From an uncultured virus (IMG/VR IMGVR_UViG_3300037295_000360) (Duplodnaviria; Heunggongvirae; Uroviricota; Caudoviricetes), in IMG/VR virus record IMGVR_UViG_3300037295_000360, positions 1 to 64,000 of that record: a DNA stretch of 64,000 nucleotides. One strand, 5' to 3'. A model generated the notes under the pieces. It ran no database searches, was not told the DNA's origin, and saw only the letters and a list, made by a program, of their open reading frames with translations. Positions 3,684-23,300 of this stretch are shown here, in pieces. How positions within the stretch are numbered: the first letter of the stretch is position 1; each line of letters opens with the position of its first letter. Both the position numbers and the translations under genes were made by a program.

Positions 3684-4226
3684 ATGAAAAAAATAAAATT
3701 ATTTGAGGAATTTATGAACGAGGCTAAAAAACAAACATATAGCGCTAATTGTGCAATGTTATACTTTGACTTTCCAAAAATGGCACAAATTCATAAAGAA
3801 ATAATAGCGTCTGATCTATTTGAATCCGATGAAGGAGGAGGTCATGGTCTAGAAACCGAATCACATTGTACTCTATTATATGGACTGAATGCAGATGTAT
3901 CATTAAATACTGTTAAAGTAAAATTACAAGGGTTTGACTTTGGTAAATGTATCGCACATAACATTTCATTATTTGAAAACAAAGAGTTTGATGTACTTAA
4001 ATTTGATATTAAGGGAGATAATTTACATGCCGCCAATAAATCTTTATGTGAACTTCCATATAAAACAGACTATCCTGATTATCATCCTCATATGACTGTT
4101 GCATATTTAAAATCAGGTATGGGAAAAAAATACGTAGAAATGTTTAATACGAATGAACATGTCTTAATTCCATCACATATTGTTTATTCAATGACAGATG
4201 GTAGTAAAAATACTATTAATATTTAA
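3684..4226 (+). CDS. 2H phosphoesterase, T4 gp57B/Acb1-like (candidate anti-CBASS nuclease), KLFEEF family
   Basis: Two HxT motifs: SHCTLLYG and DYPDYHPHMTVAY. Confidence 0.7.
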   Translation: MKKIKLFEEFMNEAKKQTYSANCAMLYFDFPKMAQIHKEIIASDLFESDEGGGHGLETESHCTLLYGLNADVSLNTVKVKLQGFDFGKCIAHNISLFENKEFDVLKFDIKGDNLHAANKSLCELPYKTDYPDYHPHMTVAYLKSGMGKKYVEMFNTNEHVLIPSHIVYSMTDGSKNTINI

Positions 4227-4315
4227 ATAGAAATTTAACAAAGATTTAACACTCTGTATTTTTTAATACGGAGTTTTTTGATTATATTTACATATACAAA
4301 TTAAAACATATTATC

Positions 4316-4846
4316 ATGGAAGACAAAATCAAATATATTTTAGAACAACATAGATCTACTAATCACATGTACGATACGTATTTACCATATGAATTTCATT
4401 TAAGAATGGTAGCTAATACTGCTCAACAATTTATAAAATTAGTTCGCAATCCAAATGACATAGAATCAGTTATTTTAGCAGCGTATGGCCACGATCTTAT
4501 TGAAGATACTAGAGTATCATATAATGATGTTAAAAATGTGATAGGACATGTTGCAGCGGATATTATTTATGCTGTTTCAAATGAAAAGGGTAAAACACGA
4601 AAGGAACGAGCAAACGATAAATACTATGAAGGAATTAAAAGCACAGAGTATGCTTTGTTCGTAAAGTTATGTGATAGAATTGCAAATGTACAATATTCAA
4701 AGATGACAAGATCTAGAATGTTCGAGATGTATAAAAAAGAAAATGATTGTTTTATTACATCATTGGGCTATTCTCAATCACATGAACTGTCTATAATGTT
4801 TATTTATTTGAATGACTTATTTACTTCAACATTTGATCAGAAATAA
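4316..4846 (+). CDS. HD-domain hydrolase, SpoT/Mesh1-like
   Basis: PYEFHL..V, AAYGHDLIEDT, VKLCDRIAN. Confidence 0.8.
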   Translation: MEDKIKYILEQHRSTNHMYDTYLPYEFHLRMVANTAQQFIKLVRNPNDIESVILAAYGHDLIEDTRVSYNDVKNVIGHVAADIIYAVSNEKGKTRKERANDKYYEGIKSTEYALFVKLCDRIANVQYSKMTRSRMFEMYKKENDCFITSLGYSQSHELSIMFIYLNDLFTSTFDQK

Positions 4847-5140
4847 ACTTTAACAAAAAGTTAACACTCCGTATTTTTAATGCGGAGTTTTTTGTTTATA
4901 TTTACATATAACTAAAAACAAAATAATATGTGGTTCAAAAAACATAAACACAAACACTATTTCGATACCTCGTTGTATAATATTCCAATGGAAAATGAAA
5001 CTAACTATATCGTAACAAAATGTAAATGTGGAGAAACAAAAATAGAAAGAGTTCATAGGAAGAGTATATCATATATGAAGTTTATTAAAATAATTACGTA
5101 AAAACAAAAACAAAATTTAAAAATAACTAAATAAAAAATT

Positions 5141-5380
5141 ATGGCACATTCATCACCGGAGGGAATAACCCTAGGAAAGGGTAGTACTTTACTATCTTTC
5201 TCATTATCAATAAATGGAGTTTTAACCAAAGAAGAGTTAATTGATGCATGGAATAACGGTAAAACCATTCAATCAAACCATCATAACGAACCATGGCATG
5301 ATTTTATTAAACATAATCAAGTAGATAGACCTAATTTCGATTATGGTGAATTATGTAATTGGAGAATAAAACCCAACTAA
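5141..5380 (+). CDS. Hypothetical protein
   Basis: ORF with A-rich leader in a promoter-driven unit. Confidence 0.5.
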   Translation: MAHSSPEGITLGKGSTLLSFSLSINGVLTKEELIDAWNNGKTIQSNHHNEPWHDFIKHNQVDRPNFDYGELCNWRIKPN

Positions 5381-5469
5381 ACATAACTTTAACAAAAAAT
5401 TAACACTCTGTATTTTTTAATACAGAGTTTTTTGATTATATTTACATATACAAATTAAAACAATCAATT

Positions 5470-5796
5470 ATGACTAATTTCAATAAAGATACAAACATAT
5501 TATTTGAAATGATTCCAGGATTTATAAATATCGACGGAAAATTATATAAATTTCACATGTCAAAGGGTAAAAGAATTACAATATCATATCAGACTGATTG
5601 GGATTCTCAGCAAAACGCATCATATCTTGGTGAAACAAATCGAAGTAGTGATAAATCCCTACATGACGTTTGTGAAAAAACAATTAAATGGTTATTTGAA
5701 GGAGATTACGTACGATATATGCCATTTGGCTTTAAGAAAAAGTATGAGGAATTATATGGTGTTACTATAGTACATTCTAGGGGGTTCGAAGAATAA
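5470..5796 (+). CDS. Hypothetical protein
   Basis: Directly follows a promoter cassette. Confidence 0.6.
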   Translation: MTNFNKDTNILFEMIPGFINIDGKLYKFHMSKGKRITISYQTDWDSQQNASYLGETNRSSDKSLHDVCEKTIKWLFEGDYVRYMPFGFKKKYEELYGVTIVHSRGFEE

Positions 5797-5824
5797 TTAG
5801 TTAATCTAACATACTAAAAATATT

Positions 5825-6178
5825 ATGGCAAAATATAAAATACCAAGAGATCCAGTTTTCAAGACATTTGGAATATTTAACACATTAAGCGGGACATATA
5901 TCTGCCCAGGATGGATTCAGGTTGATCCTGGAACAACAAGGGAGGATATCGAGTATACTGATGATATAATATATAAAGAGAAACAGATTGCCCTAGAGGT
6001 GACGTCTAAGTCCCAGATAGATCTTGAATTTAAAGTACCTTCATCAAATGGAAAATCAGAATATTTAGTAAAATTTAAACAAGGCGATTGGAGTTGTAAT
6101 TGTCCTGCTTCTACATTTAGAAGAGGAAATTGCAAGCACATAAAGGAAATTGAAACAAACCAAAAATCAAAGGTATAA
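5825..6178 (+). CDS. SWIM zinc-finger protein
   Basis: WSCNCPA...NCKHI. Confidence 0.8.
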   Translation: MAKYKIPRDPVFKTFGIFNTLSGTYICPGWIQVDPGTTREDIEYTDDIIYKEKQIALEVTSKSQIDLEFKVPSSNGKSEYLVKFKQGDWSCNCPASTFRRGNCKHIKEIETNQKSKV

Positions 6179-6505
6179 GTTATAACAAATAATTTATTAA
6201 TGAATACCGAAGAAAAGAAATTTATACAGAGACAAGTCAATATATTCATATTAATTGCTATACTTTCATTATTAGTACTCATTGGATTTACATTTATTAT
6301 TTAATTAAAAATATAAACTATGTCATTTTACACAAGATCAACCATAAATAGATCAGACGCACATTACGTGAAAGGAATGTATATTAATCCAAACAATCTA
6401 GATGAATTGTTTAATTTCCCATATACAAACTATAAAGAAAATTTGTATTAAAACAAAACAATCATAAAAATTTGACAGAAAATTAATATAACCTTTAAAT
6501 GAATT

Positions 6506-6988
6506 ATGGGAAAAAAAATAAAAATTATAGCTAAGTTCATGGGTTATAAGATTGAAAATAAAAAGTTTCAAACTTTGCAATATCATTCTTCAAATGAATC
6601 CGATTGGGTATGTGATGAACGAAAAATCGTAACTTTAGAAGGAGCCGAGGTATGTGATTACAACAATGAATCCGATTGGGTATGTGATGAACGAAAAATC
6701 GTAACTTTAGAAGGAGCCGAGGTATGTGATTACAACAATGAACCTTATTTTTTATTAGAAGATTTACCTTTTAATAAAAACTGGGATTGGTTAATGCCTG
6801 TTGTAGAAAAAATTGAATCATTAGGGTATACTTTTAAAATAACAGGAAATATCGTTACTATTAATCACCCGTTTTTTGAAGACATAGACTATCGAAAAAC
6901 AGATTTGTCTAAAATCGAAGCAGTTTACTTAGGAGTATTAATGTTTATTAAATGGTACAACAATCAGAAAACTTTAACAAAACTTTAA
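6506..6988 (+). CDS. Hypothetical protein with internal 24-aa duplication
   Basis: WDWLMPVVEKIE motif; 72-bp tandem duplication. Confidence 0.65.
   Translation: MGKKIKIIAKFMGYKIENKKFQTLQYHSSNESDWVCDERKIVTLEGAEVCDYNNESDWVCDERKIVTLEGAEVCDYNNEPYFLLEDLPFNKNWDWLMPVVEKIESLGYTFKITGNIVTINHPFFEDIDYRKTDLSKIEAVYLGVLMFIKWYNNQKTLTKL
6593..6742 (+). repeat. Exact 72-bp tandem duplication (2 copies)
   Basis: aatgaatccgattggg...gattacaac starts at 6593 and 6665. Confidence 0.95.
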
Positions 6989-7052
6989 CACTTAAAGTTT
7001 TCAAGATTAAAAAGTTTTGATTATATTTACTTATAATTAAAAACAAAACAAC

Positions 7053-7517
7053 ATGAGAACGTTAAAGGATTTAAAAGTAGGAGATAATGTTTGGACAATT
7101 TACGGCGGTAAAACTAAAGTAGAAGCTATAAATTTTAAATCAACTTATCCAATTCAAATTGAATCAGGAAGCACATTTATGTTAGACGGAAAACGCTACG
7201 TTCTTCATCATCATCCATCTTTATTTTTAGAAAATCCATTTAAAACAAAATCATTATTTAATGAAAGATGGGTTCTAGTTAGTGACTCCAATATTTATTG
7301 GTGTAAAAGATGGTTAGTAAAAGAAACAAATAAAGAATACAGTTATGTAGTTTACAGTGGAGCTGCAACAGAATATGAATTAACAAAGGTAAAAGGAGAA
7401 GTTATAAGTTATAAGTTTATGAAAGAAATTGAAGAAGTTAAAATAATTGAATTAACACTCGAAGACATTGCTAAAAAATACAATGTTGATGTATCAGAAA
7501 TAAGAATAAAAGAATAA
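7053..7517 (+). CDS. Hypothetical protein
   Basis: Follows a promoter cassette; C-terminal ELTLEDIAKKYNV. Confidence 0.65.
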   Translation: MRTLKDLKVGDNVWTIYGGKTKVEAINFKSTYPIQIESGSTFMLDGKRYVLHHHPSLFLENPFKTKSLFNERWVLVSDSNIYWCKRWLVKETNKEYSYVVYSGAATEYELTKVKGEVISYKFMKEIEEVKIIELTLEDIAKKYNVDVSEIRIKE

Positions 7518-7694
7518 AACTCTTTGATTGAAGACAAACAATAATATTTTCTATTCTATAACATATTAGATAGTTAATGTAGTTTTTACAAATATTATAG
7601 ACTGTATCAGCAGTTGTGTTTGTTGTAGATATGTGTCGTTCCACAGATAGGGTCACGCCGAGCACATCCCACTGAAATTTGGGCAAAGAGTTTT
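7516..7694 (+). ncRNA. Structured RNA candidate, copy 1
   Basis: Closing stem AAAACTCTTTG/CAAAGAGTTTT with nested stems; scaffold identical to 8189-8385. Confidence 0.6.
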
Positions 7695-7963
7695 TTTAAA
7701 TACAAATAGTTATGTTAATATTATTAGATTATTGTAACAAAAATTTACCTATTTATTTAGATGAAGAAACTGAATGTATTGTATACAAAGAACATAGCAT
7801 TAATTATAAGAGTATAAAAGAAGCTTATGAAAGTGGTTATGACGTAGTTTGTATATTCAAAAAATACTTAACGATGCTAAAGATAAAAAAAGTGGTGTAA
7901 GAGTTGTCAAAGGTTTAGATGGTTTAGAAGATTTATTAAATTTTTTAAAAAAAGGAGAATAAA

Positions 7964-8182
7964 ATGGCAATAAAATTTATTATAGCAATTTTTGTAATAT
8001 TAGTAGTATTCTATTATTTAATACAATTTTTAAATAAACCTTTAGCTAAAGAAGCTAAAAATTTAGATAATTTAGAGAAAGTCTCTGAAGAAATAAAATG
8101 TGAAAATCAAAAAATCAAAGGTGATATTGAACAAACACAAAAACAATTAGATAAAATTAAAAAAAATTTAAAAAATAAATAA
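7964..8182 (+). CDS. Small membrane-anchored coiled-coil protein
   Basis: N-terminal hydrophobic helix, charged C-terminus. Confidence 0.55.
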   Translation: MAIKFIIAIFVILVVFYYLIQFLNKPLAKEAKNLDNLEKVSEEIKCENQKIKGDIEQTQKQLDKIKKNLKNK

Positions 8183-8188
8183 AAGAAT

Positions 8189-8385
8189 AAAACTCTTTGA
8201 TTGAAGACAAACAATAATATTTTCTATTCTATAACATATTAGATAGTTAATGTAGTTTTTACAAATATTATAGACTGTATCAGCAGTTGTGTTTGTTGTA
8301 AATGTATTAGTATGAGTCAAATGCAAACCTTTTAAGTGCGTAATAACTATGAAAGTATCCCACTGAAATTTGGGCAAAGAGTTTT
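8189..8385 (+). ncRNA. Structured RNA candidate, copy 2
   Basis: Same scaffold as copy 1 with a different module at 8301-8356. Confidence 0.6.
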
Positions 8386-8396
8386 TTAATAATTTA

Positions 8397-8877
8397 AAGC
8401 ATAGGTTGTGAGCAACGTGCCCCTTAATTGCACAATGTAGACTGATAGGAAAGACTATTAAAACAGGTTAAACATTGAATACCTTTGTAAATTACAAACT
8501 ATTGTGTCGGAATAAGACGAGGATTAATAATCTGGAATTGATTCCATGTAAGATAAAATTTCTTACCAAACTATTGGTTTACATAAAGATACTAGCAGTA
8601 ATGTTAGATGTGTTGTTCCCTTGAGAAAGGATAGGTTTAGAAAAGAGTGTAATATAACATACCTCACTACAACACAAATGAGTTCTCAGCAAGTAGTTAA
8701 GTGTGATAAGTGGAAAGTATCTTTAGTAACATAGGAGAAGCTCGAAACACTTTATAGGAAAGTTACTGATACCTAATTAACTACGTGACCCTACAGACTA
8801 GACTATATGTGAAAACGTAAAGGTAGTGAAACACGATTCAACATTATAATGTTGATGAGATAGTGAGGTGGGTGCTA
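8397..8877 (+). ncRNA. Large ornate ncRNA candidate (ROOL/GOLLD-like class)
   Basis: No long ORF; many long-range helices, e.g. 8584-8593/8716-8725, 8661-8669/8861-8869, 8609-8616/8669-8676, 8693-8700/8777-8784. Confidence 0.65.
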
Positions 8878-9076
8878 AAAAATTAATTGTAATTGAAACA
8901 AAAATAAAAAGTTATATATAACTAGTATAAAATAATTTAAATTCGTGAAGAAATACACTTTTTGAAAATAAATTAAAAATAAAGCTCTTTTATAGTGAAT
9001 TAGCTGAAACTAAAAGATATATAATAATATAATATGTATAAGAAAATAAAGCTTATATATAATTAAACAAATTAAA

Positions 9077-9223
9077 ATGAAAACATTGCAAATCATATCG
9101 CAGAATATTAGTCTACTTGAGATGAATCTAGCCTTACCGACAGGGGATCAAACATGTGTCTTTTATACTAGAGAATGGAAACACAATGGTTCTTTTGAAA
9201 ATCATAAAGTTAATATGAGTTAA
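9077..9223 (+). CDS. 48-aa leader-like ORF upstream of the tRNA array
   Basis: MKTLQIISQNIS...HKVNMS, A-rich leader, followed by a terminator. Confidence 0.45.
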   Translation: MKTLQIISQNISLLEMNLALPTGDQTCVFYTREWKHNGSFENHKVNMS

Positions 9224-9247
9224 AAATCTATTAACATATAAATATTC

Positions 9248-9281
9248 AAAAGGACCTCTCAAAACTGATTGGTCCTTTTTT
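9248..9281 (+). terminator. Intrinsic terminator / possible attenuator
   Basis: AAAAGGACC..GGTCCTTTTTT. Confidence 0.7.
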
Positions 9282-9291
9282 AATTTAACAT

Positions 9292-9361
9292 GTTTCGTTT
9301 AATCTTGGAGGTTGGATAGGTTGCAACCCTATCAGAAGTGGTTCGATTCCACTACGAAACT
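9292..9361 (+). tRNA. tRNA-Cys(GCA), atypical D arm
   Basis: GTTTCGT/ACGAAAC acceptor, TTGCAAC loop, U73. Confidence 0.8.
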
Positions 9362-9530
9362 CTAATAACTTTAACAAAACATTAACACTAGAGGTTTTTA
9401 TAAGTCAAATAAAATGATTATATTTACTTATAATTAAAAACAATAGAATATGTGTGAAAAGGAAAGATTATTAAGAGAATTGTTTAAGACCGTAGAAAAG
9501 AAAACAAACGGTTGGAAATGTAAAATGGAA

Positions 9531-9635
9531 ACTTTAACAAAAAATTAACACTTAAAGTTTTCAAGATTAAAAGATTTTGATTATATTTACTTATAATTAA
9601 AAACAAACGTTAATTGACATATTGATAATACTAAA
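9531..9635 (+). promoter_or_regulatory. ~105-bp tRNA promoter/leader repeat (also 10540-10644 and 11841-11945; variant 6971-7048)
   Basis: Near-identical copies ending GTTAATTGACATATTGATAATACTAAA just before a tRNA. Confidence 0.85.
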
Positions 9636-9636
9636 C

Positions 9637-9709
9637 GCGAATATCGTATAATGGCTTATTACTCTAGACTTCCAATCTGGAAATGACAGTTCGATCCTGT
9701 CTATTCGCT
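9637..9709 (+). tRNA. tRNA-Gly(TCC)
   Basis: Cloverleaf, CTTCCAA loop. Confidence 0.9.
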
Positions 9710-9738
9710 CCGGGAACCTTTTTAACATTTCCATATAT

Positions 9739-10422
9739 ATGGAAAAGTTAATTAAGGTTAAACAAGCCTCAAGGCGAAAATATCATTACATCTATAAAAC
9801 TACATGTATCATTACTGAAAGGTTTTATATTGGAATGCACTCAACTGATAACCTAGAAGATGGTTATGTTGGTTCAGGTAAAAGATTATGGCATTCAATA
9901 AACAAACATGGCAAACAAAATCATGTCACTGCGATAATTGAATATTTAAAAGATAGAGATTCTTTAAAAGCTAGAGAAAAAGAAATGGTTAATGAAGATC
10001 TATTAAAGGATCCTCAATGCATGAATTTAGCGTTAGGCGGAGAAGGTGGTGCGGGTTGCATGACTAAAGAACAATTATCTAAAGGAGGTAAAAAAATGAA
10101 TGAACTAAATTGGACTGATCCTGAATTTATAAAACGGAATGCAGAAAGAAATAAAATAAGGTTAAAAGAATTATGGAAAGATCCAGAATATAGAAACAAA
10201 ATGTTAGTTTTAATAAATTGGACTGGTAGAAAACATAAAGAAGATTCTATAAATAAAATGAAAATGTCTAAGATCGATCATGGAAAAGGATCTTTAAACT
10301 CACAATATAATACATGTTGGATTTATAAAATTACAGATGAAAAATCTATTAAAATAAAAAATAATGAAATTCAATCATATTTAGATAATGGTTGGATTGA
10401 AGGTAGGAAGATGAAATGGTAA
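9739..10422 (+). CDS. GIY-YIG homing endonuclease (Seg-like, NUMOD3-type repeat) inside the tRNA array
   Basis: YIYKTT..FYIGMH..Y.GSG; GRKHKEDSINKM. Confidence 0.85.
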   Translation: MEKLIKVKQASRRKYHYIYKTTCIITERFYIGMHSTDNLEDGYVGSGKRLWHSINKHGKQNHVTAIIEYLKDRDSLKAREKEMVNEDLLKDPQCMNLALGGEGGAGCMTKEQLSKGGKKMNELNWTDPEFIKRNAERNKIRLKELWKDPEYRNKMLVLINWTGRKHKEDSINKMKMSKIDHGKGSLNSQYNTCWIYKITDEKSIKIKNNEIQSYLDNGWIEGRKMKW

Positions 10423-10468
10423 AACATTAAATAGCAATTGACTCCTTTTATTAGAGAAAGAATTACAA

Positions 10469-10540
10469 TATCTTATAGTGTAACGGTTAGCACGAATCAC
10501 TTTGAATGATTCAGTTTAGGTTCGAATCCTAATAAGATAA
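10469..10540 (+). tRNA. tRNA-Gln(TTG)
   Basis: Cloverleaf, CTTTGAA loop. Confidence 0.85.
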
Positions 10541-10644
10541 CTTTAACAAAACTTTAACACTTAAAGTTTTCAAGATTAAAAGATTTTGATTATATTTACT
10601 TATAATTAAAAACAAACGTTAATTGACATATTGATAATACTAAA

Positions 10645-10720
10645 CGAGAGGTATAGGAGTCAGGTTTATCTAGCTGCACTTGGACTGCAGATCACGTGGG
10701 TTCGAATCCCACTCTCTCGA
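10645..10720 (+). tRNA. tRNA-Pro(TGG)
   Basis: CTTGGAC loop, C1-G72. Confidence 0.9.
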
Positions 10721-10851
10721 CTAAATCTTTAAAGATTACAATACCGCAATGATTGCCGGCTACATGCATTGATCCTTAACCCATATATTCGTTTGGGGTT
10801 CTTTCGAATTGGATAAACCGGACAGTTTTCCTAGGTGATGCTAGGATATTT

Positions 10852-10934
10852 GCTCTTATGGCGGAACAGGTAGACGCACTGGTCTTAGAAACCAACGCTG
10901 TAATGGCATCTCGGTTCGACTCCGAGTAAGAGTA
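10852..10934 (+). tRNA. tRNA-Leu(TAG)
   Basis: CTTAGAA loop, long variable arm. Confidence 0.92.
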
Positions 10935-10966
10935 CTATAATGACTATTAGGAAAGACTAATAATTT

Positions 10967-11040
10967 GCTCTCTACGCATAAATGGTGGTGCGCTGGCTTT
11001 GTAACCCGGAATAGATTCAGTTCGATCCTGAAAGAGAGCT
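10967..11040 (+). tRNA. tRNA-Thr(TGT)
   Basis: GCTCTCT/AGAGAGC acceptor, TTTGTAA loop. Confidence 0.8.
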
Positions 11041-11051
11041 CTAATTTAAAT

Positions 11052-11120
11052 TAGTAATTAGCTTAAGAGATTAAAGCGTAATACGAGATTAAGATATGGA
11101 TTCAAAAAACCATATTACAT
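11052..11120 (+). pseudogene. Degenerate tRNA-like remnant
   Basis: D-arm-like TAGCTTAA..AAGC and a weak T arm; no clean anticodon arm. Confidence 0.35.
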
Positions 11121-11134
11121 AATTTAAATTAATT

Positions 11135-11205
11135 GGCCCGGTCGTCTAAAAGCAGGACATTGTACTTTCAATTCAAAAACCGGAGAGCGTTACTCCGTCG
11201 GGCTA
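11135..11205 (+). tRNA. tRNA-Glu(TTC)
   Basis: CTTTCAA loop; T loop AGCGTTA. Confidence 0.85.
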
Positions 11206-11225
11206 CTAAAAATAAGATTAAATAA

Positions 11226-11298
11226 GGGGTTGTAGCTAAAATGGATTAGCACTTCGTTTGCAACGAAAAGTATGCGGGTTCGAGGCCCGTCAGCTCCA
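11226..11298 (+). tRNA. tRNA-Ala(TGC)
   Basis: G3.U70, TTTGCAA loop. Confidence 0.92.
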
Positions 11299-11389
11299 CA
11301 CTAGTTAAGCAATTGGTCATAAACAGCAATTGTGGATATATATGTTGTTAAGGTCCGCAAAACCCTCTAGCCAACTACTGTTTATATTT

Positions 11390-11460
11390 GGTCCATTAGT
11401 ACAAAGGCAGTATACCTGGTTGTCGCCCAGATGAAAACGGATCGTTACCGTTATGGACCG
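11390..11460 (+). tRNA. tRNA-Asp(GTC)
   Basis: TTGTCGC loop, G73. Confidence 0.88.
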
Positions 11461-11546
11461 CTAAATATTTTCTATTATTGAAAAATAGTTTAAGATAAAG
11501 TTTAAGAGTAATTAACTTAAACCTAAGAACTTTGCAAGGTTCTAGA

Positions 11547-11620
11547 TTGATTATAGTGTATTGGAGCACGGGTCATTTATTGGAAAACAGGAGTAGGGTT
11601 CGAATCCCTTCAAATCAGCA
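11547..11620 (+). pseudogene. Degenerate tRNA
   Basis: D and T arms present (AGGG TTCGAAT CCCT); anticodon arm does not pair. Confidence 0.45.
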
Positions 11621-11625
11621 AATAT

Positions 11626-11700
11626 GGCGGGCGGACCGGTCGGTATCGGAGGTAGTCTCATAAGCTACATTAAATGTAGTTCGACTCTACAGCGTCGCAA
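11626..11700 (+). tRNA. tRNA with CAT anticodon (Met/fMet/Ile2 unresolved)
   Basis: CTCATAA loop, imperfect acceptor stem. Confidence 0.75.
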
Positions 11701-11763
11701 CGATGCAGTTTATATGATTCTCTTTTCATTGAGTTCTCCTCAGAAAAACTCTAAAAAAGAAAT

Positions 11764-11835
11764 GGTCTCGTGGCGCAGCGGTAGCGCAGTTCGCTCATAA
11801 CGAAAAGGTCGCAGGTCCGAATCCTGCCGGGACCA
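11764..11835 (+). tRNA. tRNA with CAT anticodon (Met or Ile2)
   Basis: Canonical cloverleaf, CTCATAA loop. Confidence 0.88.
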
Positions 11836-11946
11836 CTAAAACTTTAACAAAAAATTAACACTTAAAGTTTTCAAGATTAAAAGATTTTGATTATATTTAC
11901 TTATAATTAAAAACAAACGTTAATTGACATATTGATAATACTAAAT

Positions 11947-12031
11947 GGAATTTATCCGGGTGGATGAGGAGCTTGTTTTGAAAACAAGTAACAGGTTATA
12001 CTGTTGTGGGTTCGAATCCCACACCTTCTTC
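11947..12031 (+). tRNA. tRNA-Ser(TGA), imperfect acceptor stem
   Basis: TTTGAAA loop, long variable arm. Confidence 0.75.
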
Positions 12032-12119
12032 AAATAAAATCTTAATTATAAGTATCTCCCAAAACATTCTAAGTTATATTTAAAGGAGAGAGAAGAACTT
12101 AGAGTACTTATAATTACAC

Positions 12120-12190
12120 GCCCTTGATGCTTTAAAGTGAAGCACCTAGCTTTTAACTAGGGGAAGTAGGAGCATTACCTACCAGGGGTA
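12120..12190 (+). tRNA. tRNA-Lys(TTT)
   Basis: CTTTTAA loop; T loop AGCATTA. Confidence 0.85.
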
Positions 12191-12249
12191 CACGGATGAG
12201 ACTGTTACTAATACATAGAGCTACATATTGCTAGCATAGAATTAGATTT

Positions 12250-12320
12250 GCCTCGTTGGCGTAATGGAAGCGTAATTGTTTTACATGCAATTGGCAGTGG
12301 TTCGATTCCACTACGAGGTA
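12250..12320 (+). tRNA. tRNA-Val(TAC)
   Basis: TTTACAT loop. Confidence 0.88.
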
Positions 12321-12418
12321 CAAAAATGGGAATAAACAAACAAATGACTGCAATCCTTATTTTGTTTATAAACATACTATGAAAGTTAAATCTTGCAGGA
12401 AATAACTACTAATAGTTT

Positions 12419-12481
12419 TGCTAATGGTATTCTGGGAATACACCACATAAGTGGAGAGTAGGTTTCGAATCCCTTTGGTAA
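12419..12481 (+). pseudogene. Shortened tRNA-like remnant
   Basis: Mini D and anticodon hairpins plus a TTCGAAT T loop. Confidence 0.35.
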
Positions 12482-12506
12482 TCAAATTTAAGTTTTCTTA
12501 AAAACT

Positions 12507-12587
12507 GGGAACAGAAAGTCGTTTGGATACGGCAGCGAGACTGTAAATCTCGTCCGAAAGGGAGTGGTTCGAGTCCACCCGGTCCCA
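12507..12587 (+). tRNA. tRNA-Tyr(GTA)
   Basis: CTGTAAA loop, variable arm. Confidence 0.88.
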
Positions 12588-12674
12588 CTAAACTTTAACA
12601 TGTTAAAGTTGATTAAAACATAATGTCAACGTATTGGAATTTAAACCCCCGTTAGGCTCTGATATTATGTAATT

Positions 12675-12747
12675 GCGGATTAAGCTAATCTGGTGAAAGC
12701 GCATGGTTGAAGCCCATGAGAGACAGGATCGTAACCTGTAATCCGCA
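12675..12747 (+). tRNA. tRNA-Phe(GAA)
   Basis: TTGAAGC loop. Confidence 0.88.
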
Positions 12748-12800
12748 CAGCGTTAAAGGTAATGCTGAACGTCAAACGACAATCCGGAAAGACGGATAAT

Positions 12801-12872
12801 GGATCGGTAGCTCAGGGGCAGAGCGGATGTTTGTTAGGCATCGGGTCGAGATTTCGAAATTCTCCCGGTCCG
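12801..12872 (+). tRNA. tRNA-Asn(GTT)
   Basis: TTGTTAG loop, G73. Confidence 0.88.
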
Positions 12873-12877
12873 CTAAA

Positions 12878-12958
12878 TTGCAATGGTGGTCGCCATCGGT
12901 CTCATGAGCCGTGTTGGTAGTATATACCTGGTGGAGGTTCGATTCCTCCAATTGCAAC
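12878..12958 (+). tRNA. Atypical CAT tRNA-like RNA (vestigial D arm, long variable arm)
   Basis: TTGCAAT/ATTGCAA acceptor, CTCATGA loop, canonical T arm. Confidence 0.55.
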
Positions 12959-13054
12959 AAAATTGCTAAAAATAAATAAAAAGTGACCTGACGCCAAGAA
13001 ATGACGTCCGCAATAAAACATTCAGTGGGAGTCAACCACATTTAGCGATCAATT

Positions 13055-13194
13055 GCCCGAATAGGTACTAAGGTATATCCTTAGTGGCGAGTGGGCTAAC
13101 GATGGTTTAATATTACTGCCCGATATTCTAGATAAAGCATGGAAAGTGATTAAACATGTGGTTAGCAGGGTTGGTTCGATTCCATCTTTGGGCA
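13055..13194 (+). ncRNA. 140-nt tRNA-like RNA with greatly extended anticodon arm
   Basis: GCCCGAA/TTTGGGC-A acceptor, TTCGATT T loop, GCTAAC/GTTAGC and GTTTAAT/ATTAAAC stems. Confidence 0.6.
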
Positions 13195-13202
13195 CAAAAA
13201 AT

Positions 13203-13274
13203 TCACCTGTAGTAGAATGGTTAGCACACATCTCTGATAAGGATGAAATGGAAGTTCAATTCTTCCCAGGTGAA
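13203..13274 (+). tRNA. tRNA-Ile(GAT)
   Basis: CTGATAA loop. Confidence 0.85.
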
Positions 13275-13280
13275 CAATAT

Positions 13281-13351
13281 TCGCATGTAGTATAGGGGTT
13301 AGCACGCATCCCTATCGCGATGAAATGGAAGTTCAAATATTCCCATGTGAA
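13281..13351 (+). pseudogene. Diverged tandem duplicate of tRNA-Ile with altered anticodon loop
   Basis: Colinear with 13203-13274; loop region CCTATCGC. Confidence 0.55.
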
Positions 13352-13358
13352 TAATAAT

Positions 13359-13441
13359 AGAGAGTAAACTAGAATGGTTCTAGCACTGTTTGCTAAACAG
13401 TTGGTCCGAATTCGGATGGGGATCGTAACCTCTTCTCTCTA
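13359..13441 (+). tRNA. tRNA-Ser(GCT)
   Basis: TTGCTAA loop, variable arm. Confidence 0.85.
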
Positions 13442-13573
13442 CTAAGTACCTGTAAAGCGTTAGAGAATTGGTGCACCAATATATTATGTAGAATGGCCAT
13501 TTTATTATAGTAACGTTGTCTTAGGTTGATCAAGTTCGAATCTTGATAGACAAACTTAATACGATACTTAAAT

Positions 13574-13642
13574 TGCGATTTGATCTAGGATCGAGAATAT
13601 CTCATAAGTATTTTCAGACAGGAGCGTAACCTGTAATCGCAA
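13574..13642 (+). tRNA. tRNA with CAT anticodon, short D arm
   Basis: TGCGATT/AATCGCA acceptor, CTCATAA loop. Confidence 0.7.
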
Positions 13643-13668
13643 CGAAGATTAGTTACTAATCTCCATAT

Positions 13669-13741
13669 GGTGTTTGAAGCTTTTTAGTGAAGCGCAAGAC
13701 TGTGAATCTTGAGAAGACGGGGCAGTACCGTCCTAACACCC
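13669..13741 (+). tRNA. tRNA-His(GTG)
   Basis: G-1/C73, CTGTGAA loop. Confidence 0.85.
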
Positions 13742-13964
13742 GACATCTCCAAAATGGAGAATGACTTGGTAATGAATTTATTTCAAACAAACTCAATACC
13801 TTAAGTTGAGCTGCTAATCTACGGGATTAGTTATTAAAAATAAAAATAGTAGTGAAGCTGTATTTATATTACTTTATTCTCGCTGATTGTTGAAAAGGCG
13901 TTAGGAGATTCAGATGAGTTAGTAATATCACAGAATGCCTGAAAGACCCGAAACTATTTTAAAC

Positions 13965-14046
13965 TCCCTTTTGATGGAACAGTAGACATGTCAGACTTAA
14001 AATCTGGTGCCTTTATGGTGTGCGAGTGCAACTCTCGTAAGGGGAA
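13965..14046 (+). tRNA. tRNA-Leu(TAA)
   Basis: CTTAAAA loop, variable arm. Confidence 0.85.
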
Positions 14047-14052
14047 CTATAT

Positions 14053-14127
14053 AATCCTATAGCTTAATCGGAAAAGAGCGCTGTGCTACGAACGCAGAGG
14101 ATATAGGTTCGAGTCCTATTGGGATTT
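14053..14127 (+). tRNA. tRNA-Arg(ACG)
   Basis: CTACGAA loop. Confidence 0.9.
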
Positions 14128-14144
14128 CAAATATTAATTGTTGA

Positions 14145-14360
14145 AGTTTATGGACGTTTTGCAAGACTCGAGTTCGACTCTCGACATCTCCACTAAATTA
14201 GAAGTAATATAAGGGGATGACTGGTTTTGATTGCAATATAGGATATAAGACGAGATTGATATCAATGCAAACGACAAATTTGCCTTAGCAGCGTAGTTGC
14301 TGTTAGGTATTAACTTCCAGAGAGGTTATTTATCTACGTCACCTGAAACGAAATTCAGGA
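14145..14360 (+). ncRNA. ssrA: Circularly permuted (two-piece) tmRNA; tag ANDKFALAA at 14267-14296; outer ends approximate
   Basis: 3' half (T arm plus CATCTCC-A, ending 14192) precedes 5' half GGGGATG (14213); G3.U; TTGCAA/TTGCAA helix; tag ORF with stop hairpin. Confidence 0.88.
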
Positions 14361-14364
14361 ATTT

Positions 14365-14436
14365 GCCTCTATAGTTTAATTGGAAAAACGGATCTCTTCT
14401 AAAGATCAAACATGGGTTCGACTCCCGTTAGAGGTT
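14365..14436 (+). tRNA. tRNA-Arg(TCT)
   Basis: CTTCTAA loop. Confidence 0.9.
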
Positions 14437-14511
14437 CTAATATTAAAGAAACAGAGTAACATTTAGACAACCATTATATAGTAGAATTTAACTTAGACAT
14501 TTTCTTTAAAT

Positions 14512-14694: not shown

Positions 14695-15228
14695 ATGTAT
14701 AATCATACAATATCAATGAAAAAGTACACCAAAACACTAGTGCTTGACTCTAGTTACATGCCAAGAAGTATTATCACTAGTCTACGAGCATATGTCGTTG
14801 TTATTAAGGGAAACGCAGCAATCGTTGAAGAACATGATTGTAATTTTAAATTATGCAATCCAGATACGATTATAAAAAAGCCATCAGTTATTAGAGTTCA
14901 GAAGTACGTAAACACCCGACACAATAAGGTTCCGTTAACAAGGGAGAATGTATTTAAGAGGGATGGAAATATGTGTGTATATTGTGGAGATGACAATATT
15001 AAAACACTAACCATAGATCATGTTGTTCCTCAGTCTAAAGGAGGTGGAAATTCATGGGATAATTTAGTAACCGCATGTAAAAGATGCAATGGAGAAAAGG
15101 CAGATTTAAGCTTAGAAGAATTTGGAAAAGACATACCAGTGCCAAAACGACCTCATTATCTAATGCTATTAAAATCCATTGAATATATTCCAGAAGAATG
15201 GAAAAAATACATGTTTTTCTCAGTTTAA
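14695..15228 (+). CDS. HNH endonuclease (McrA-like)
   Basis: RDG..CVYCG, TIDHVVP.SKGG..WDNLVTAC..CN..K. Confidence 0.92.
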   Translation: MYNHTISMKKYTKTLVLDSSYMPRSIITSLRAYVVVIKGNAAIVEEHDCNFKLCNPDTIIKKPSVIRVQKYVNTRHNKVPLTRENVFKRDGNMCVYCGDDNIKTLTIDHVVPQSKGGGNSWDNLVTACKRCNGEKADLSLEEFGKDIPVPKRPHYLMLLKSIEYIPEEWKKYMFFSV

Positions 15229-15316: not shown

Positions 15317-15724
15317 ATGAATAATTTAAAAATATTATGGTTAGATGATTTAAGAAATCCTTACTTAAATATAGAAGGTAGAGTACCAAAGGAAGAGGGA
15401 GTTATTGAGTGGGTTTTAAATTATGAACAATTTACACAATGGATAACTAAATTTGGTCTTCCTTATTTAATATCATTCGACCATGATTTAGCCGATGAAC
15501 ATTATACTCCAGAAGAATACTGGCATGATTATCAAATAAGTAAAGATTATCAAGATGCTCAAAATTATACTGAAAAAACTGGAATGGATTGTGCAAAATG
15601 GTTAGTTGATTATTGTATAGATAATAATCAAAAACTACCAATATTTTATTCTCATTCTGCGAATCCAGTAGGTGCTGACAATATCATAGGTCTTTTAGGA
15701 AACTACAAGAGACTCTGTGAGTAA
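15317..15724 (+). CDS. Cyclic-phosphate-processing receiver-like domain protein
   Basis: LWLDDLR, ISFDHDL, TGMDCAKWL, HSANPVG. Confidence 0.8.
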   Translation: MNNLKILWLDDLRNPYLNIEGRVPKEEGVIEWVLNYEQFTQWITKFGLPYLISFDHDLADEHYTPEEYWHDYQISKDYQDAQNYTEKTGMDCAKWLVDYCIDNNQKLPIFYSHSANPVGADNIIGLLGNYKRLCE

Positions 15725-15817: not shown

Positions 15818-16024
15818 ATGAAGAAATTATTAATAATGTCAGCATTTACTTTAATATCATGTGGTAGTGTTGAAGACCGAATAAACGATTCCAGTTACAC
15901 TAAAGAATGGCATCAAGTAGAAGGTGTAAGGTATCAGGTATACAAATACAGGAATGATGTTAGATATATTATAGTCCTAAATAAGAATGAGTCTAGATTT
16001 ATAAAAAGAAACTTAAAAAGATGA
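15818..16024 (+). CDS. Small putative lipoprotein
   Basis: MKK signal with LISC lipobox. Confidence 0.55.
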   Translation: MKKLLIMSAFTLISCGSVEDRINDSSYTKEWHQVEGVRYQVYKYRNDVRYIIVLNKNESRFIKRNLKR

Positions 16025-16746
16025 AACAGAGAATAACATTAATATCAGATACTCACACTAGGCATGGTTTAATTAATCTATTGGATCTGCCAGGTGGAGA
16101 TATCTTAATTCACGCTGGTGATTTAATGAATTCAGGCTATAATTCAAATGAAGTTAAAGACTTTTGTTATTGGTATAATTCACTAAGTCAATATGATTCA
16201 AAGATATTTATAGCGGGAAATCATGATAGATTCTTCGAAAACAATCCAGATGGTGCTAAAGGGATATATGAAGAGTATAAAGCGATTGATTATTTACAAG
16301 ACGATCAATTAACAATATATAATGATGGACCTAATGGAGATTTAACTGGAGATAATATTAAAATATATGGCAGTCCATGGCAGCCTGAATTTTATAATTG
16401 GGCATTTAATCTGCCTAAGAATGGACCTGGTTTAATGTCAAAATGGGAAGCTATTCCACACGACACCGATATATTAGTTACGCATTGTCCTCCATCAGGG
16501 ATATTGGATACTAGTGGATATCCATATAATGAACCTATGTTAGGTTGTACGATATTAAGGGAACGGGTTGATTTAATCGTGCCAAAGATTCATGTGTTTG
16601 GACATATTCATGGAAGTGCAGGATATCGATTCCTCAATGGAACTCACTTTTTTAACGCCTCCTTATTGAACGAAGAATATCAATATGCGAATAAGCCAAT
16701 AACATTTGATTGGGACAAAGAAACTAACGCCATAGAATTCATTTAA
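16021..16746 (+). CDS. Calcineurin-like metallophosphoesterase
   Basis: SDTH, HAGD, GNHD, THCPP, GHIH. Confidence 0.93.
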   Translation: MKQRITLISDTHTRHGLINLLDLPGGDILIHAGDLMNSGYNSNEVKDFCYWYNSLSQYDSKIFIAGNHDRFFENNPDGAKGIYEEYKAIDYLQDDQLTIYNDGPNGDLTGDNIKIYGSPWQPEFYNWAFNLPKNGPGLMSKWEAIPHDTDILVTHCPPSGILDTSGYPYNEPMLGCTILRERVDLIVPKIHVFGHIHGSAGYRFLNGTHFFNASLLNEEYQYANKPITFDWDKETNAIEFI

Positions 16747-21010: not shown

Positions 21011-21595
21011 ATGAGTCAAACAGAATCCCACCTAGGTAAATTATACCCAGTAAAAATGGAGTCTTCATTAGAAGAAACTTGTAAAAAAATTGCTAAAAGG
21101 CATAATATCGAATTAGGAGAGGATTGGCAAGAAGACTTCAGAGAAAACTTTAATGAATATGAACATCAAAACAAAAGAGTAGATGAGGAATATTTTATTC
21201 ATGGCGAAACACTTTATAGAGTTATAAATCATGAAGAATCAAGTGATGACGATTGTTTTATGAAACTTGGTAGGAATAGTGATGGTTCAATTTCATTCAC
21301 AGGACAATTCTATAATAGTGCAACATGTTTTTCTGAGATGCTAGAAGAGGCGCTTGACAATTTAAAGCCTTCATATAATGAGCAATTTAGAGATGCCATT
21401 AAAAAAATACTTGAAGATAAAACTATTAAACCACCAGTATCTGTTCCATCGGCTTGTTTATTATTAGCACAACATGTTGGATTAGATGAATCTATTGAAT
21501 TAATAGAAGGCGTGATTAAAGAAAACAAAGATAATATTTTTAAATCTTTGGCATATGAGACCGCACTAGATTATATTAAAAACGAATTAAAATAA
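21011..21595 (+). CDS. Hypothetical protein
   Basis: Long ORF. Confidence 0.6.
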   Translation: MSQTESHLGKLYPVKMESSLEETCKKIAKRHNIELGEDWQEDFRENFNEYEHQNKRVDEEYFIHGETLYRVINHEESSDDDCFMKLGRNSDGSISFTGQFYNSATCFSEMLEEALDNLKPSYNEQFRDAIKKILEDKTIKPPVSVPSACLLLAQHVGLDESIELIEGVIKENKDNIFKSLAYETALDYIKNELK

Positions 21596-22089
21596 TGAAA
21601 GTAATATTCCTGGATTTTGACGGTGTACTTAATGTAATTCCACAGGATCATGATCAATATGGCGGTATTTTCCATCAGAATTTAGTAGAAAACCTAGGTA
21701 GAATCATAGAAGTAACTAGCGCTAAATTAATTATAAGTTCTTCTTGGAGGCATATGGGTTTGGCAATGTTACGTATGATGTGGGAACACCGAGGTTATCC
21801 TGGTGAAATTATAGGAATTACTCCAGATTTATGGAGAAGAGTTAAAGACGAAGAATCTCATGAAAGTTTACAAAGAGGTGATGAAATTCAAGTAGTTCTT
21901 AATTTACATCCAGAAATAGAAAATTATGTTATTTTAGATGATGACCAGGATATGTTAAAAAGCCAATTAGGAAATTTCGTATGTTGCTCTAATAACATTA
22001 ATCACCCCGATTGTATCGATATTGGATATGGACTAACTAATGAATGTGCTAATAAAGCAATAAGAATTTTAAATAAACGTATTCATTAA
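21595..22089 (+). CDS. HAD phosphatase (Swiss-Army-knife RNA-repair type)
   Basis: IFLDFDGVLN, ISSSWR, RGDEI, VILDD. Confidence 0.85.
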   Translation: MKVIFLDFDGVLNVIPQDHDQYGGIFHQNLVENLGRIIEVTSAKLIISSSWRHMGLAMLRMMWEHRGYPGEIIGITPDLWRRVKDEESHESLQRGDEIQVVLNLHPEIENYVILDDDQDMLKSQLGNFVCCSNNINHPDCIDIGYGLTNECANKAIRILNKRIH

Positions 22090-22712: not shown

Positions 22713-23300
22713 ATGAAAATAATATTCTTAGACAATGATGGCGTAATTTGCCTTGATAATAATTGGGGCGGGAGAACTCGAAAATGGAATGAATGGATTA
22801 AGAAACATCCGGAATCTTTGTCATATAAAGATTGTGATGTATTTCATCGTTTTGATAACTTTGATAAAAAGGCTGTTAATGTTTTAAATCAAATTTTAGA
22901 AGAGACAGGAGCAGAAATTGTTGTTTCTTCTGATTGGAAGAAACATGCATCATTAAATGAACTAGGTGATTATTACATATCACAGGGAATCTCTAAAAGA
23001 CCAATTGCAATTACTCCTATTTTTATAGGATGCGATAAACATGATGGGTTTGAATGGAGTTATTGTGATCAATATGAGCAACAAAGATGTTTAGAGATTA
23101 TGCAATATGTAAAGGACAATCCATCAATAACACATTGGGTTGCAGTAGATGATCTGGTAATGCAAAGGGAAGTTACTAATAAACATAATGGAGATCAATC
23201 GAGAGTTTGGGGTTTAGATAATTTTGTATGGACACCAAAGATGAGCGAAGGTATTAAACAAACTGGCATCAAGCAAAAAATATTAAACCTTTTAAGTTAA
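22713..23300 (+). CDS. HAD phosphatase (Swiss-Army-knife type), second paralog
   Basis: IFLDNDGVI, VSSDW, WVAVDD. Confidence 0.82.
   Translation: MKIIFLDNDGVICLDNNWGGRTRKWNEWIKKHPESLSYKDCDVFHRFDNFDKKAVNVLNQILEETGAEIVVSSDWKKHASLNELGDYYISQGISKRPIAITPIFIGCDKHDGFEWSYCDQYEQQRCLEIMQYVKDNPSITHWVAVDDLVMQREVTNKHNGDQSRVWGLDNFVWTPKMSEGIKQTGIKQKILNLLS

Follow-up and report, generated by a model that had tools for sequence, protein, structure and literature searches.

A phage RNA family with an almost invariant four-way-junction core and two exchangeable arms

The locus and its repeated element

The DNA analysed here (the window) comprises the initial 64 kb of a 170,013-nt record of an uncultured virus (IMG/VR IMGVR_UViG_3300037295_000360; 31% G+C, estimated to be 61% complete), a T4-like phage with genes for Gp23, the portal protein gp20 (Portal_T4) and gp32. 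Upstream of a tRNA array and each next to the end of an open reading frame (ORF), it carries, on the + strand, two copies of a structured RNA element and, directly downstream of the second copy, a larger structured RNA that is associated with the element and is not part of it. The positions of these features are given in Table 1.

A repeat search of the window returned a 133-nt repeat at 7498–7630 and 8171–8303 with 97% identity and a 31-nt repeat at 7666–7696 and 8357–8387 with 100% identity (families D1 and D7). Taken together these are one element present twice and the same except for one internal arm, as had been claimed in an earlier reading of this DNA made without database searches (the sequence-only reading); nhmmer found only these two copies in the 170-kb record. 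The slot described there as swapped, 7628–7665 in one copy and 8301–8356 in the other, is unrelated between the copies. The stems named in that reading are likewise present: AAAACTCTTTG (7516–7526) with CAAAGAGTTTT (7684–7694), ACAAACA (7534–7540) with TGTTTGT (7617–7623), ATAATATTT (7541–7549) with AAATATTAT (7590–7598) and CCCA (7668–7671) with TGGG (7680–7683). Each copy was also said to start at the stop of the preceding gene, and indeed copy 1 begins on the stop codon (7515–7517) of ORF 7053–7517 and copy 2 begins 7 nt past the stop (8180–8182) of ORF 7964–8182. An exact repeat of 112 nt within the element cannot be attributed to chance. Single-sequence folding was only moderately better than that of shuffled sequences (z = -2.97, equalled by 1 of 200 shuffles, and z = -2.10, equalled by 7 of 200), and the case for an RNA therefore rests on homologues.

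Table 1. Positions in the window of the RNA element, its parts and the adjacent larger RNA
Feature	Copy 1 or single copy	Copy 2	Strand	Remarks
RNA element, copy 1	7516–7696		+	Covariance model R1 match, 138.2 bits, E 7.8e-25; repeat families D1/D7
RNA element, copy 2		8189–8387	+	Covariance model R1 match, 137.8 bits
P1, 5' strand	7516–7526	8189–8199	+	Pairs with 7684–7694 (copy 2: 8375–8385)
J1/2, unpaired AUUGAAG	7527–7533	8200–8206	+	Columns nearly invariant in alignments A1 and A2
P2, 5' strand, ACAAACA	7534–7540	8207–8213	+	Pairs with TGTTTGT at 7617–7623 (copy 2: 8290–8296)
P3 arm, variable module 1	7541–7598	8214–8271	+	Inside P2; common to both window copies
P4 hairpin GACUG-UAUCAG-CAGUU	7600–7615	8273–8288	+	Inside P2; loop UAUCAG
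J2/5, unpaired UGUAGA (copy 2: UGUAAA)	7624–7629	8297–8302	+	Kept as U-N-N-A-R-A
P5 arm of copy 1, variable module 2	7630–7667		+	GC-rich; closed by AUGUG/CACAU; wholly unlike copy 2
P5 arm of copy 2, variable module 2		8303–8358	+	Near-identical arm in L204, a contig of a metagenome-assembled genome (MAG)
P6 hairpin CCCA-CUGAAAUU-UGGG	7668–7683	8359–8374	+	Abuts P1; loop CUGAAAUU
Second, larger structured RNA	8465–8878		+	Directly downstream of copy 2; associated with the element, not part of it

The element folds into a covarying four-way junction

The architecture common to the homologues consists of a closing helix (P1), a four-way junction, the two arms P3 and P5, and a pairing between the loops of P4 and P6 that is itself supported by covariation. 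In 22 sequences aligned with MAFFT, 91.2% of the cells were paired, compared with 38.5–52.7% when the partners were slid, and 17 of 33 pairs had changed on both sides; none of 500 shuffles reached the observed values. When 52 sequences were aligned to a covariance model, 90.8% of the cells were paired and 23 of 31 pairs had changed on both sides (118 cells), again a result that none of 500 shuffles equalled.

In the 52 sequences P1 was 92.3% paired with double-sided change in all 11 of its pairs, and some members have replaced the whole helix (AATCACTTA/TAAGTGATT and AAAATCCCA/TGGGGGTTT). P2 was paired in 99.2% of cells, with a C-G to U-A covariation at one pair and A-U, G.U and G-C all found at its closing pair; the base helix of P3 covaried in four of four pairs; and P4, paired in 98.8% of cells, had the compensatory variants CCG/CGG and CCA/UGG. 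At least 12 compensated stem variants were present in P6, including CCCA/TGGG, TCCA/TGGA, CCTA/TAGG, CTTAA/TTAAG, TACA/TGTA, TGTA/TACA and CCAG/CTGG. The P4 and P6 loops were complementary over at least 4 nt in 48 of the 52 sequences, with a mean complement of 4.15 nt against 2.67 nt for shuffled loops (maximum 2.94 in 200 shuffles); UAUCAG pairs with CUGA(A/U)A, and one compensated variant combines UAUUAG with CUAAAA. Among 1572 cells the mismatches were strongly asymmetric (103 G.U and 10 A.C), indicating that the constraint acts on the + strand as RNA and not on duplex DNA.

The sequence-only reading had proposed a structured RNA whose scaffold is invariant and one module swapped, an idea that a covariance model and further homologues might confirm; the homologues do covary and the proposal is supported. 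Two of its details require amendment. A single variable slot is correct for the window pair, which shares P3, but across the family there are two slots, P3 and P5. The loop of the final hairpin (P6), which it called T-loop-like, is better understood as the partner of the P4 loop in a loop–loop pairing.

Distribution and novelty of the family

Homologues were sought in IMG/VR with exact words from three scaffold motifs, a procedure that biases the sample toward conserved scaffolds. The word from the 5' block was found in 22 stretches, 21 of them with the whole element; the 17-mer from the core was found in 100, a good part of these being chance matches in coding DNA; and the word from the 3' block was found in two. 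After dereplication 46 distinct elements were retained. A covariance model built from 22 elements then placed the element at 53 positions in 50 loci, corresponding to 52 distinct sequences from viral contigs. Distinct elements range in length from 153 nt to 281 nt, the latter in phage phi14:2.

Several carriers are cultured phages of Cellulophaga baltica. In phi14:2 (Crassvirales, crAss-like) the element lies at 1285–1566 and is annotated in GenBank as two tiny hypothetical ORFs, gp003 and gp004; phi4:1 and phi17:2 (Lightbulbvirus) also harbour it, in phi4:1 at 129598–129795, where GenBank has the hypothetical ORF gp168. Among 50,697 records of cultured phages the core block matched nine, all from Cellulophaga phages (E<=0.007). 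In 185,579 species genomes, one for each species, a 20-mer occurred in eight contigs, and two of these had real elements, both on contigs of MAGs. A housekeeping RNA of the host was rejected as a candidate on this result, only two of the eight pattern matches in the GTDB species genomes being real and both lying on MAG contigs. The family is, judging from the records searched, restricted to phages of marine Flavobacteria (Flavobacteriia).

The element was absent from existing catalogues as far as these were searched. With Rfam 15 at gathering score the window matched only 18 tRNAs and tmRNA_permuted, none of them on the element; at E<=10 the region 7300–9300 had three chance-level matches, the best being GibS with 27.3 bits against a required 115, and CRISPR-DR35 scored at chance level on P6/P1 (19.5 against 35 required). 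Eight relatives scanned at E<=1 also had no match on the element. The family, which the sequence-only reading did not recognise, is thus uncatalogued in Rfam even under permissive thresholds. ARAGORN called 15 tRNAs at 9292–14437 and none at 7516–8387, where the Rfam tRNA model was also unmatched. We found no description of this RNA in the literature, which does not establish its absence from print. The main text of a study of 10,006 viral candidate RNAs (PMC10690425) contains none of six host and context words, and the family may still be listed there; its supplement files 3, 4, 5 and 6 had no match to four sequence strings and three contig names, the alignments lying outside that search. On comparative sequence evidence, the element is a real, previously uncatalogued and strongly structured non-coding RNA family.

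Exchange of the arms and tests for a guide function

The arms vary far more than the scaffold that bears them. P3 ranges from 24 to 90 nt and P5 from 36 to 152 nt; their ends are closed by the conserved base helices, about 51% of their bases are predicted to be paired, and they fold only mildly better than shuffled arms (mean z = -1.0 and -0.7). Pairing is also maintained within an arm, with A-U to G-C and G.U to G-C changes in P5 between contigs L120 and L139. Contigs share arms in different combinations: L014 has the P3 arm of the window with the P5 arm of L050; one P5 arm is common to L120, L132 and L139, each of which combines it with a different P3 arm; L116 and L126 have a P3 arm in common; and in the MAG contig L204 the P5 arm of copy 2 stands on another P3 arm and is again followed by the larger RNA. 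When positions 4000–11000 of the window were compared with five arm-sharing contigs, similarity at the DNA level was confined to the RNA genes. Both this confinement and the reassortment of arms fit recombination within the invariant blocks. Short motifs were only weakly enriched in the arms, the pentamer TAGGT occurring in 9 of 41 against 2.3 expected.

A constant scaffold with a variable insert had suggested to the sequence-only reading a programmable guide, antisense or decoy RNA. In the 170-kb phage record, complementarity to either arm never extended beyond 13 nt. The GC-rich arm of copy 1 was unmatched in all 301 genomes of the host family, that of the Lutibacter MAG, at up to three mismatches over 28 nt, a search that covers neither short seeds nor the other arms. 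Five phage records, four of them at least 90% complete, were searched for effectors. Reverse transcriptase (RT; PF00078) was absent from all five (the control was positive in 3 of 14 genomes), as were the IS110 recombinase (PF01548) and TROVE/Ro60 (PF05731); the latter was also absent from 41 sampled genomes of the Lutibacter MAG's family, with positive controls in Deinococcus and Bacteroides. TnpB/Cas12-type PF07282 (Cas12f1-like_TNB) gave one sub-threshold match in the five records (14.2 bits against a cut-off of 26.3), and no Cas9, Cas13 or IscB was found in a general Pfam scan of the 194 ORFs of the window's record, no separate search for them being made. The programmable guide is therefore not supported: no effector gene is linked to the element, the arms are closed and helical, and no targets were found.

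Three more specific candidates were rejected. For a template of the retron, diversity-generating retroelement or UG27 type the phage records offered no RT. A Cas12a-like handle was dismissed as its ...UUGUAGAU motif varies (UUGGAGAU, UUCGAGAU, UUGUAAAU) and no TnpB/Cas12 effector exceeded the cut-off. A Y RNA with Ro60 was rejected on the absence of TROVE from the phages and from the 41 host-family genomes, and the one partner candidate failed: a DUF7788 + DUF2828 protein of 474 amino acids, encoded at 141004–142428 of the window's record and outside the window, had looked like a possible Ro-type partner, a resemblance that was not confirmed, since a PDB sequence search returned nothing for it; the protein was also absent from five other RNA-bearing phage records, four of them at least 90% complete.

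Genomic context of the element

Each of the four phage records that are at least 90% complete has one copy of the element and the window record has two; L004, L047 and L119 also have two, the second copy being more diverged. The element is on the same strand as its neighbours. For nine of 43 elements there are tRNA genes no more than 2 kb away, on the same strand every time, and five of the elements (L100, L107, L117, L122 and L125) are inside tRNA arrays at 8–16 nt from the flanking tRNAs. A U-run follows P1 in every case, and in these five array loci it pairs with a preceding A-run to give a closing helix of about 16 bp. A TAnnTTTG box, which we take to be the Bacteroidota -7 promoter element, precedes 7 of 43 elements at a distance of up to 70 nt, compared with 4.4% of background windows, and five of those seven have TATATTTG 12–21 nt upstream; a scan for sigma-70 promoters returned 12 sites against 16.5 expected from shuffles. 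In 33 of 38 loci the element and the ORF upstream of it share a strand, and in 15 of the 38 the RNA starts no more than 30 nt after a same-strand stop. The proteins encoded nearby are not conserved, the largest cluster comprising 5 of 27 loci and having no Pfam family; a riboswitch was rejected because the downstream genes are not conserved. By these features the element appears to behave as a stable-RNA gene that is usually single-copy, sometimes in tRNA arrays, sometimes equipped with a promoter box and often adjacent to the larger RNA.

The larger RNA downstream of copy 2 has homologues that adjoin the element in about ten contigs. It is built of invariant blocks parted by variable insertions. 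Eight relatives gave 45 consensus pairs, 11 of them compensatory, and a 27-nt block is identical in the T4-like phage of the window, in crAss-like phi14:2 and in a third phage. A 19-mer from this RNA occurs in 107 stretches of IMG/VR. Among 68 distinct loci with flanks, a tmRNA lies 150–500 nt downstream in 13, a tRNA in 10 and the four-way-junction element in 7. Rfam scans of this RNA returned no family, whether in the window, in eight relatives or in 20 further loci. This second RNA is, on the loci sampled, more widespread than the element and often just upstream of phage tmRNA genes. In the window itself, the end of the tRNA array (14146–14296, +) matched tmRNA_permuted with 54.8 bits against a gathering score of 47, and ARAGORN calls no tmRNA there; phi14:2 has a standard tmRNA-like match at 4031–4502, just below threshold.

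Other features were noted around the tRNA array. Genes of RNA-repair type flank it on both sides (167–1300, 3684–4223, 15317–15721, 16021–16743, 21595–22086 and 22713–23297), the set comprising an RNA ligase with a PHA02142 OB domain, an Acb1/2H-like protein, a cREC cyclic-phosphate receiver, a Metallophos protein and two HAD_SAK_2 proteins. Two ORFs are of homing-endonuclease type: 9739–10422, in the array, has an N-terminus that is GIY-YIG-like by eye and no Pfam match, and 14695–15228, beside the array, encodes an HNH protein with a 68% identical HNH homologue near the element in contig L125. Upstream of the element, ORF 6506–6988 contains an exact 72-nt tandem duplication (6593–6736) that doubles 24 residues, and a 100-nt direct repeat with 77% identity (family D2; 6956–7055 and 9353–9452) ends at an ATG in each copy and may be a shared promoter or leader region. 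Beyond the window, the same record has weak intein/Hint matches in a ClpB-like ATPase, a helicase and a ribonucleotide reductase (65767–66879, 129931–130914 and 147460–148644), and its ribonucleotide reductase and family B DNA polymerase appear to be split into pieces.

What the element may do

On balance we consider it probable that each repeat is a gene for the same stable and compactly folded non-coding RNA, whose core acts in trans and whose arms are peripheral. The comparative data show the family, its fold and strand, its restriction to phages, its genomic contexts and the reassortment of arms, whereas action in trans, the partner and the processing are inferred. The RNA would be read from the + strand, either with neighbouring genes or tRNAs or from its own promoter, and it would be bounded by the long closing helix P1, the 3' strand of which enters the U-tract. 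Its working part would be the invariant core, made up of the four-way junction, the two conserved purine-rich joining strands and the P4–P6 loop–loop pairing; this core probably serves as a platform on which a conserved partner binds or assembles. Candidates for the partner are a host protein or RNA connected with tRNA or translation, or other molecules of the same RNA. The occurrence of the element in three unrelated phage lineages with a common host group points to such a host-side partner or to self-assembly. P3 and P5 would then be peripheral helices, free to be replaced entirely and redistributed through recombination within the invariant blocks. The window pair would have arisen, as part of the same explanation and with the same restrained preference on our side, by duplication followed by replacement of one arm. 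The sequence-only reading had offered a recombinant duplicate of a regulatory element as its simpler alternative, and for the origin of the two copies this fits, in that the near-complete relatives are single-copy and arms reassort between contigs.

A number of observations weigh against this explanation. No partner was identified in this analysis, and none of the 17 RNA runs listed carries the locus, so that a discrete stable RNA is not shown. The 52-sequence alignment was fitted to the model and so leans toward that structure, and within it P6 was 76.4% paired, its 5' strand being out of register in one subclass. The starts adjacent to stop codons and the constant U-run would also fit a cis-acting 3'-end element. 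The replacement of arms on identical scaffolds, and the retention of two copies in the window, could mean that the arms carry specificity and are not neutral. Finally, positions 7648–7657 in the P5 arm of copy 1 are complementary over 10 nt to 8784–8793, an invariant block of the larger RNA, a match that none of 200 shuffles equalled.

These last points favour, among the alternatives, a modular specificity RNA, which generalises the idea of the sequence-only reading: the core would be a chassis for an effector or host factor and the arms exchangeable decoy, aptamer or antisense cassettes that are swapped to track host targets or defences. Such a reading would account for the combinatorial reassortment of arms between contigs, for the second copies in the window and in L004, L047 and L119 and for the RNA-repair-type genes nearby (RNA ligase, Acb1/2H-like, cREC, Metallophos and two HAD_SAK proteins). 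It sits poorly with the searches for effectors, in which RT, IS110 and TROVE were each found in none of the five phage records and Cas12f1-like_TNB in one below its cut-off, with a largest neighbour cluster of only 5 of 27 loci, and with arms that are mostly helical and share motifs only weakly (TAGGT, 9 of 41 against 2.3 expected). Moreover, 18 of 20 tests of arms against the larger RNA were not significant (one further gave p = 0.02), the complementary block is itself paired in the fold of the larger RNA, complements in the phage record (none over 13 nt) and in the 301 host-family genomes (none for the GC-rich arm) are missing, and the near-complete genomes have a single copy. We regard it as unlikely, though as the most serious of the rivals. 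The cis-acting alternative, a large structured terminator, insulator or RNase processing stalk that gives the transcript upstream of it a defined or more stable 3' end and has no function in trans, seems to us improbable. It draws on the 15 of 38 starts close to a same-strand stop, the 33 of 38 same-strand upstream ORFs, the U-run that always follows P1 and the fact that both window copies abut stop codons; yet in the five tRNA arrays the next tRNA lies 12–16 nt downstream and would be silenced by termination, and the U-run there pairs with the upstream A-run to lengthen P1 to about 16 bp. A promoter box is present at some elements that no ORF adjoins, a consensus terminator scan returned no sites in 6900–9400, and a terminator needs no invariant four-way junction, joining strands or covarying loop–loop contact.

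A compact junction whose unpaired nucleotides are highly conserved and whose peripheral stems vary, situated between genes and between tRNAs, is a layout typical of small ribozymes, and the element might accordingly be imagined as a new self-cleaving or catalytic class that cuts polycistronic phage transcripts. We think this very improbable, given that the ribozyme families of Rfam 15 were unmatched even at E<=10 and that no conserved candidate context for a cleavage site was recognised. Least credible is an element that works as DNA, such as a mobile repeat similar to a miniature inverted-repeat transposable element or a recombination site, whose terminal inverted repeats mimic the closing stem. 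The 11-nt terminal inverted repeats, the two copies 673 nt apart and the spread over unrelated phages are what it would lead one to expect, but the strand-asymmetric mismatches (103 G.U against 10 A.C) are expected for RNA and not for duplex DNA, the internal helices and the loop–loop contact covary, all four near-complete genomes have a single copy, and the element is always on the strand of flanking tRNAs; hardly any weight can be given to it.

A more speculative reading, which we consider unlikely, goes further. The element might be a natural modular chassis whose core docks a host factor, or self-assembles through P4:P6 into rings or chains, and whose cassettes set what the resulting particle binds or mimics; these cassettes would be traded by recombination in an arms race between unrelated Flavobacteria phages and their host, and together with the larger RNA, the tmRNA of the phage and the tRNAs the element would form an 'RNA toolkit' for taking over RNA metabolism or translation in the host.

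Significance

Structured phage RNAs that lie near tRNA islands and have no known function, such as GOLLD and ROOL, are a standing puzzle, to which the element adds a smaller family with strong covariation behind it. The carriers belong to three unrelated phage lineages with one host group in common, which points to a host-directed function. Exchangeable arm cassettes on a near-invariant core are unusual for a structured RNA and provide a natural mutagenesis series, and the occurrence of the element in the cultured Cellulophaga baltica phages phi4:1, phi17:2 and phi14:2 makes it testable at the bench.

Comparison with known systems

The element was compared with other structured RNAs; it is not a member of ROOL/GOLLD, of the phi29 pRNA or of the Y RNAs, each assignment failing at least one defining test. 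ROOL and GOLLD, which are among the closest analogues, are phage-encoded RNAs that often lie near tRNA islands (for the element, 9 of 43 have tRNAs within 2 kb), lack a known protein partner and a known function, and combine a conserved core with variable regions. ROOL is roughly 500–600 nt long. GOLLD often exceeds 800 nt, and the loop–loop contacts of ROOL and GOLLD, first seen as covariation, turned out to be intermolecular (10.1101/2024.12.08.627333). The covarying loop–loop contact of the element may form in cis or in trans, two arrangements that are indistinguishable in silico. Unlike ROOL and GOLLD, whose Rfam models were unmatched, the element measures 153–281 nt, has an unrelated four-way junction and belongs to phages with Flavobacteriia as hosts.

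The pRNA of phi29 is a small phage RNA with paired ends, a multi-helix junction and two loops with a short, covarying Watson–Crick complement. The element resembles it in its paired ends, its junction and its covarying loop complement (at least 4 nt in 48 of 52 sequences; UAUCAG with CUGA(A/U)A). The pRNA is found in phi29-like podoviruses as a ring on the packaging motor, whereas the element is carried by T4-like, Crassvirales and Lightbulbvirus phages and the Rfam pRNA model was unmatched. Y RNAs and YrlA have a long stem between the 5' and 3' ends, a variable interior, a proposed tRNA-like elbow and paralogues with a shared stem, and they are linked to RNA-repair genes. The ends of the element similarly form the long stem P1 (92.3% paired, double-sided change in 11 of 11 pairs), and genes of RNA-repair type flank the tRNA island of the window. 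The differences are that TROVE was found in none of five phage records and none of 41 host-family genomes, that the Rfam models of Y RNA and YrlA were unmatched and that the P6 loop of the element lacks the T-loop sequence of tRNA.

Arrays of non-coding RNAs associated with UG27 RTs in phages of Bacteroidota and Bacillota consist of structured units, each some 150 nt long and containing a basal hairpin and a pseudoknot; these units are diverse in sequence with little primary-sequence conservation, are gained and lost, and lie beside the RT and two accessory genes (10.64898/2026.09.22.753630). Both are structured RNA units borne by phages, but the element had an RT in none of five phage records, its scaffold is almost invariant and it is present in one or two copies. 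The tRNA cluster of T4 also encodes stable RNAs that are not tRNAs, species 1 and 2 (rnaC and rnaD), of unknown function and processed with the tRNAs. As stable RNAs in a tRNA cluster these may be analogous to the element, the likeness being one of context alone.

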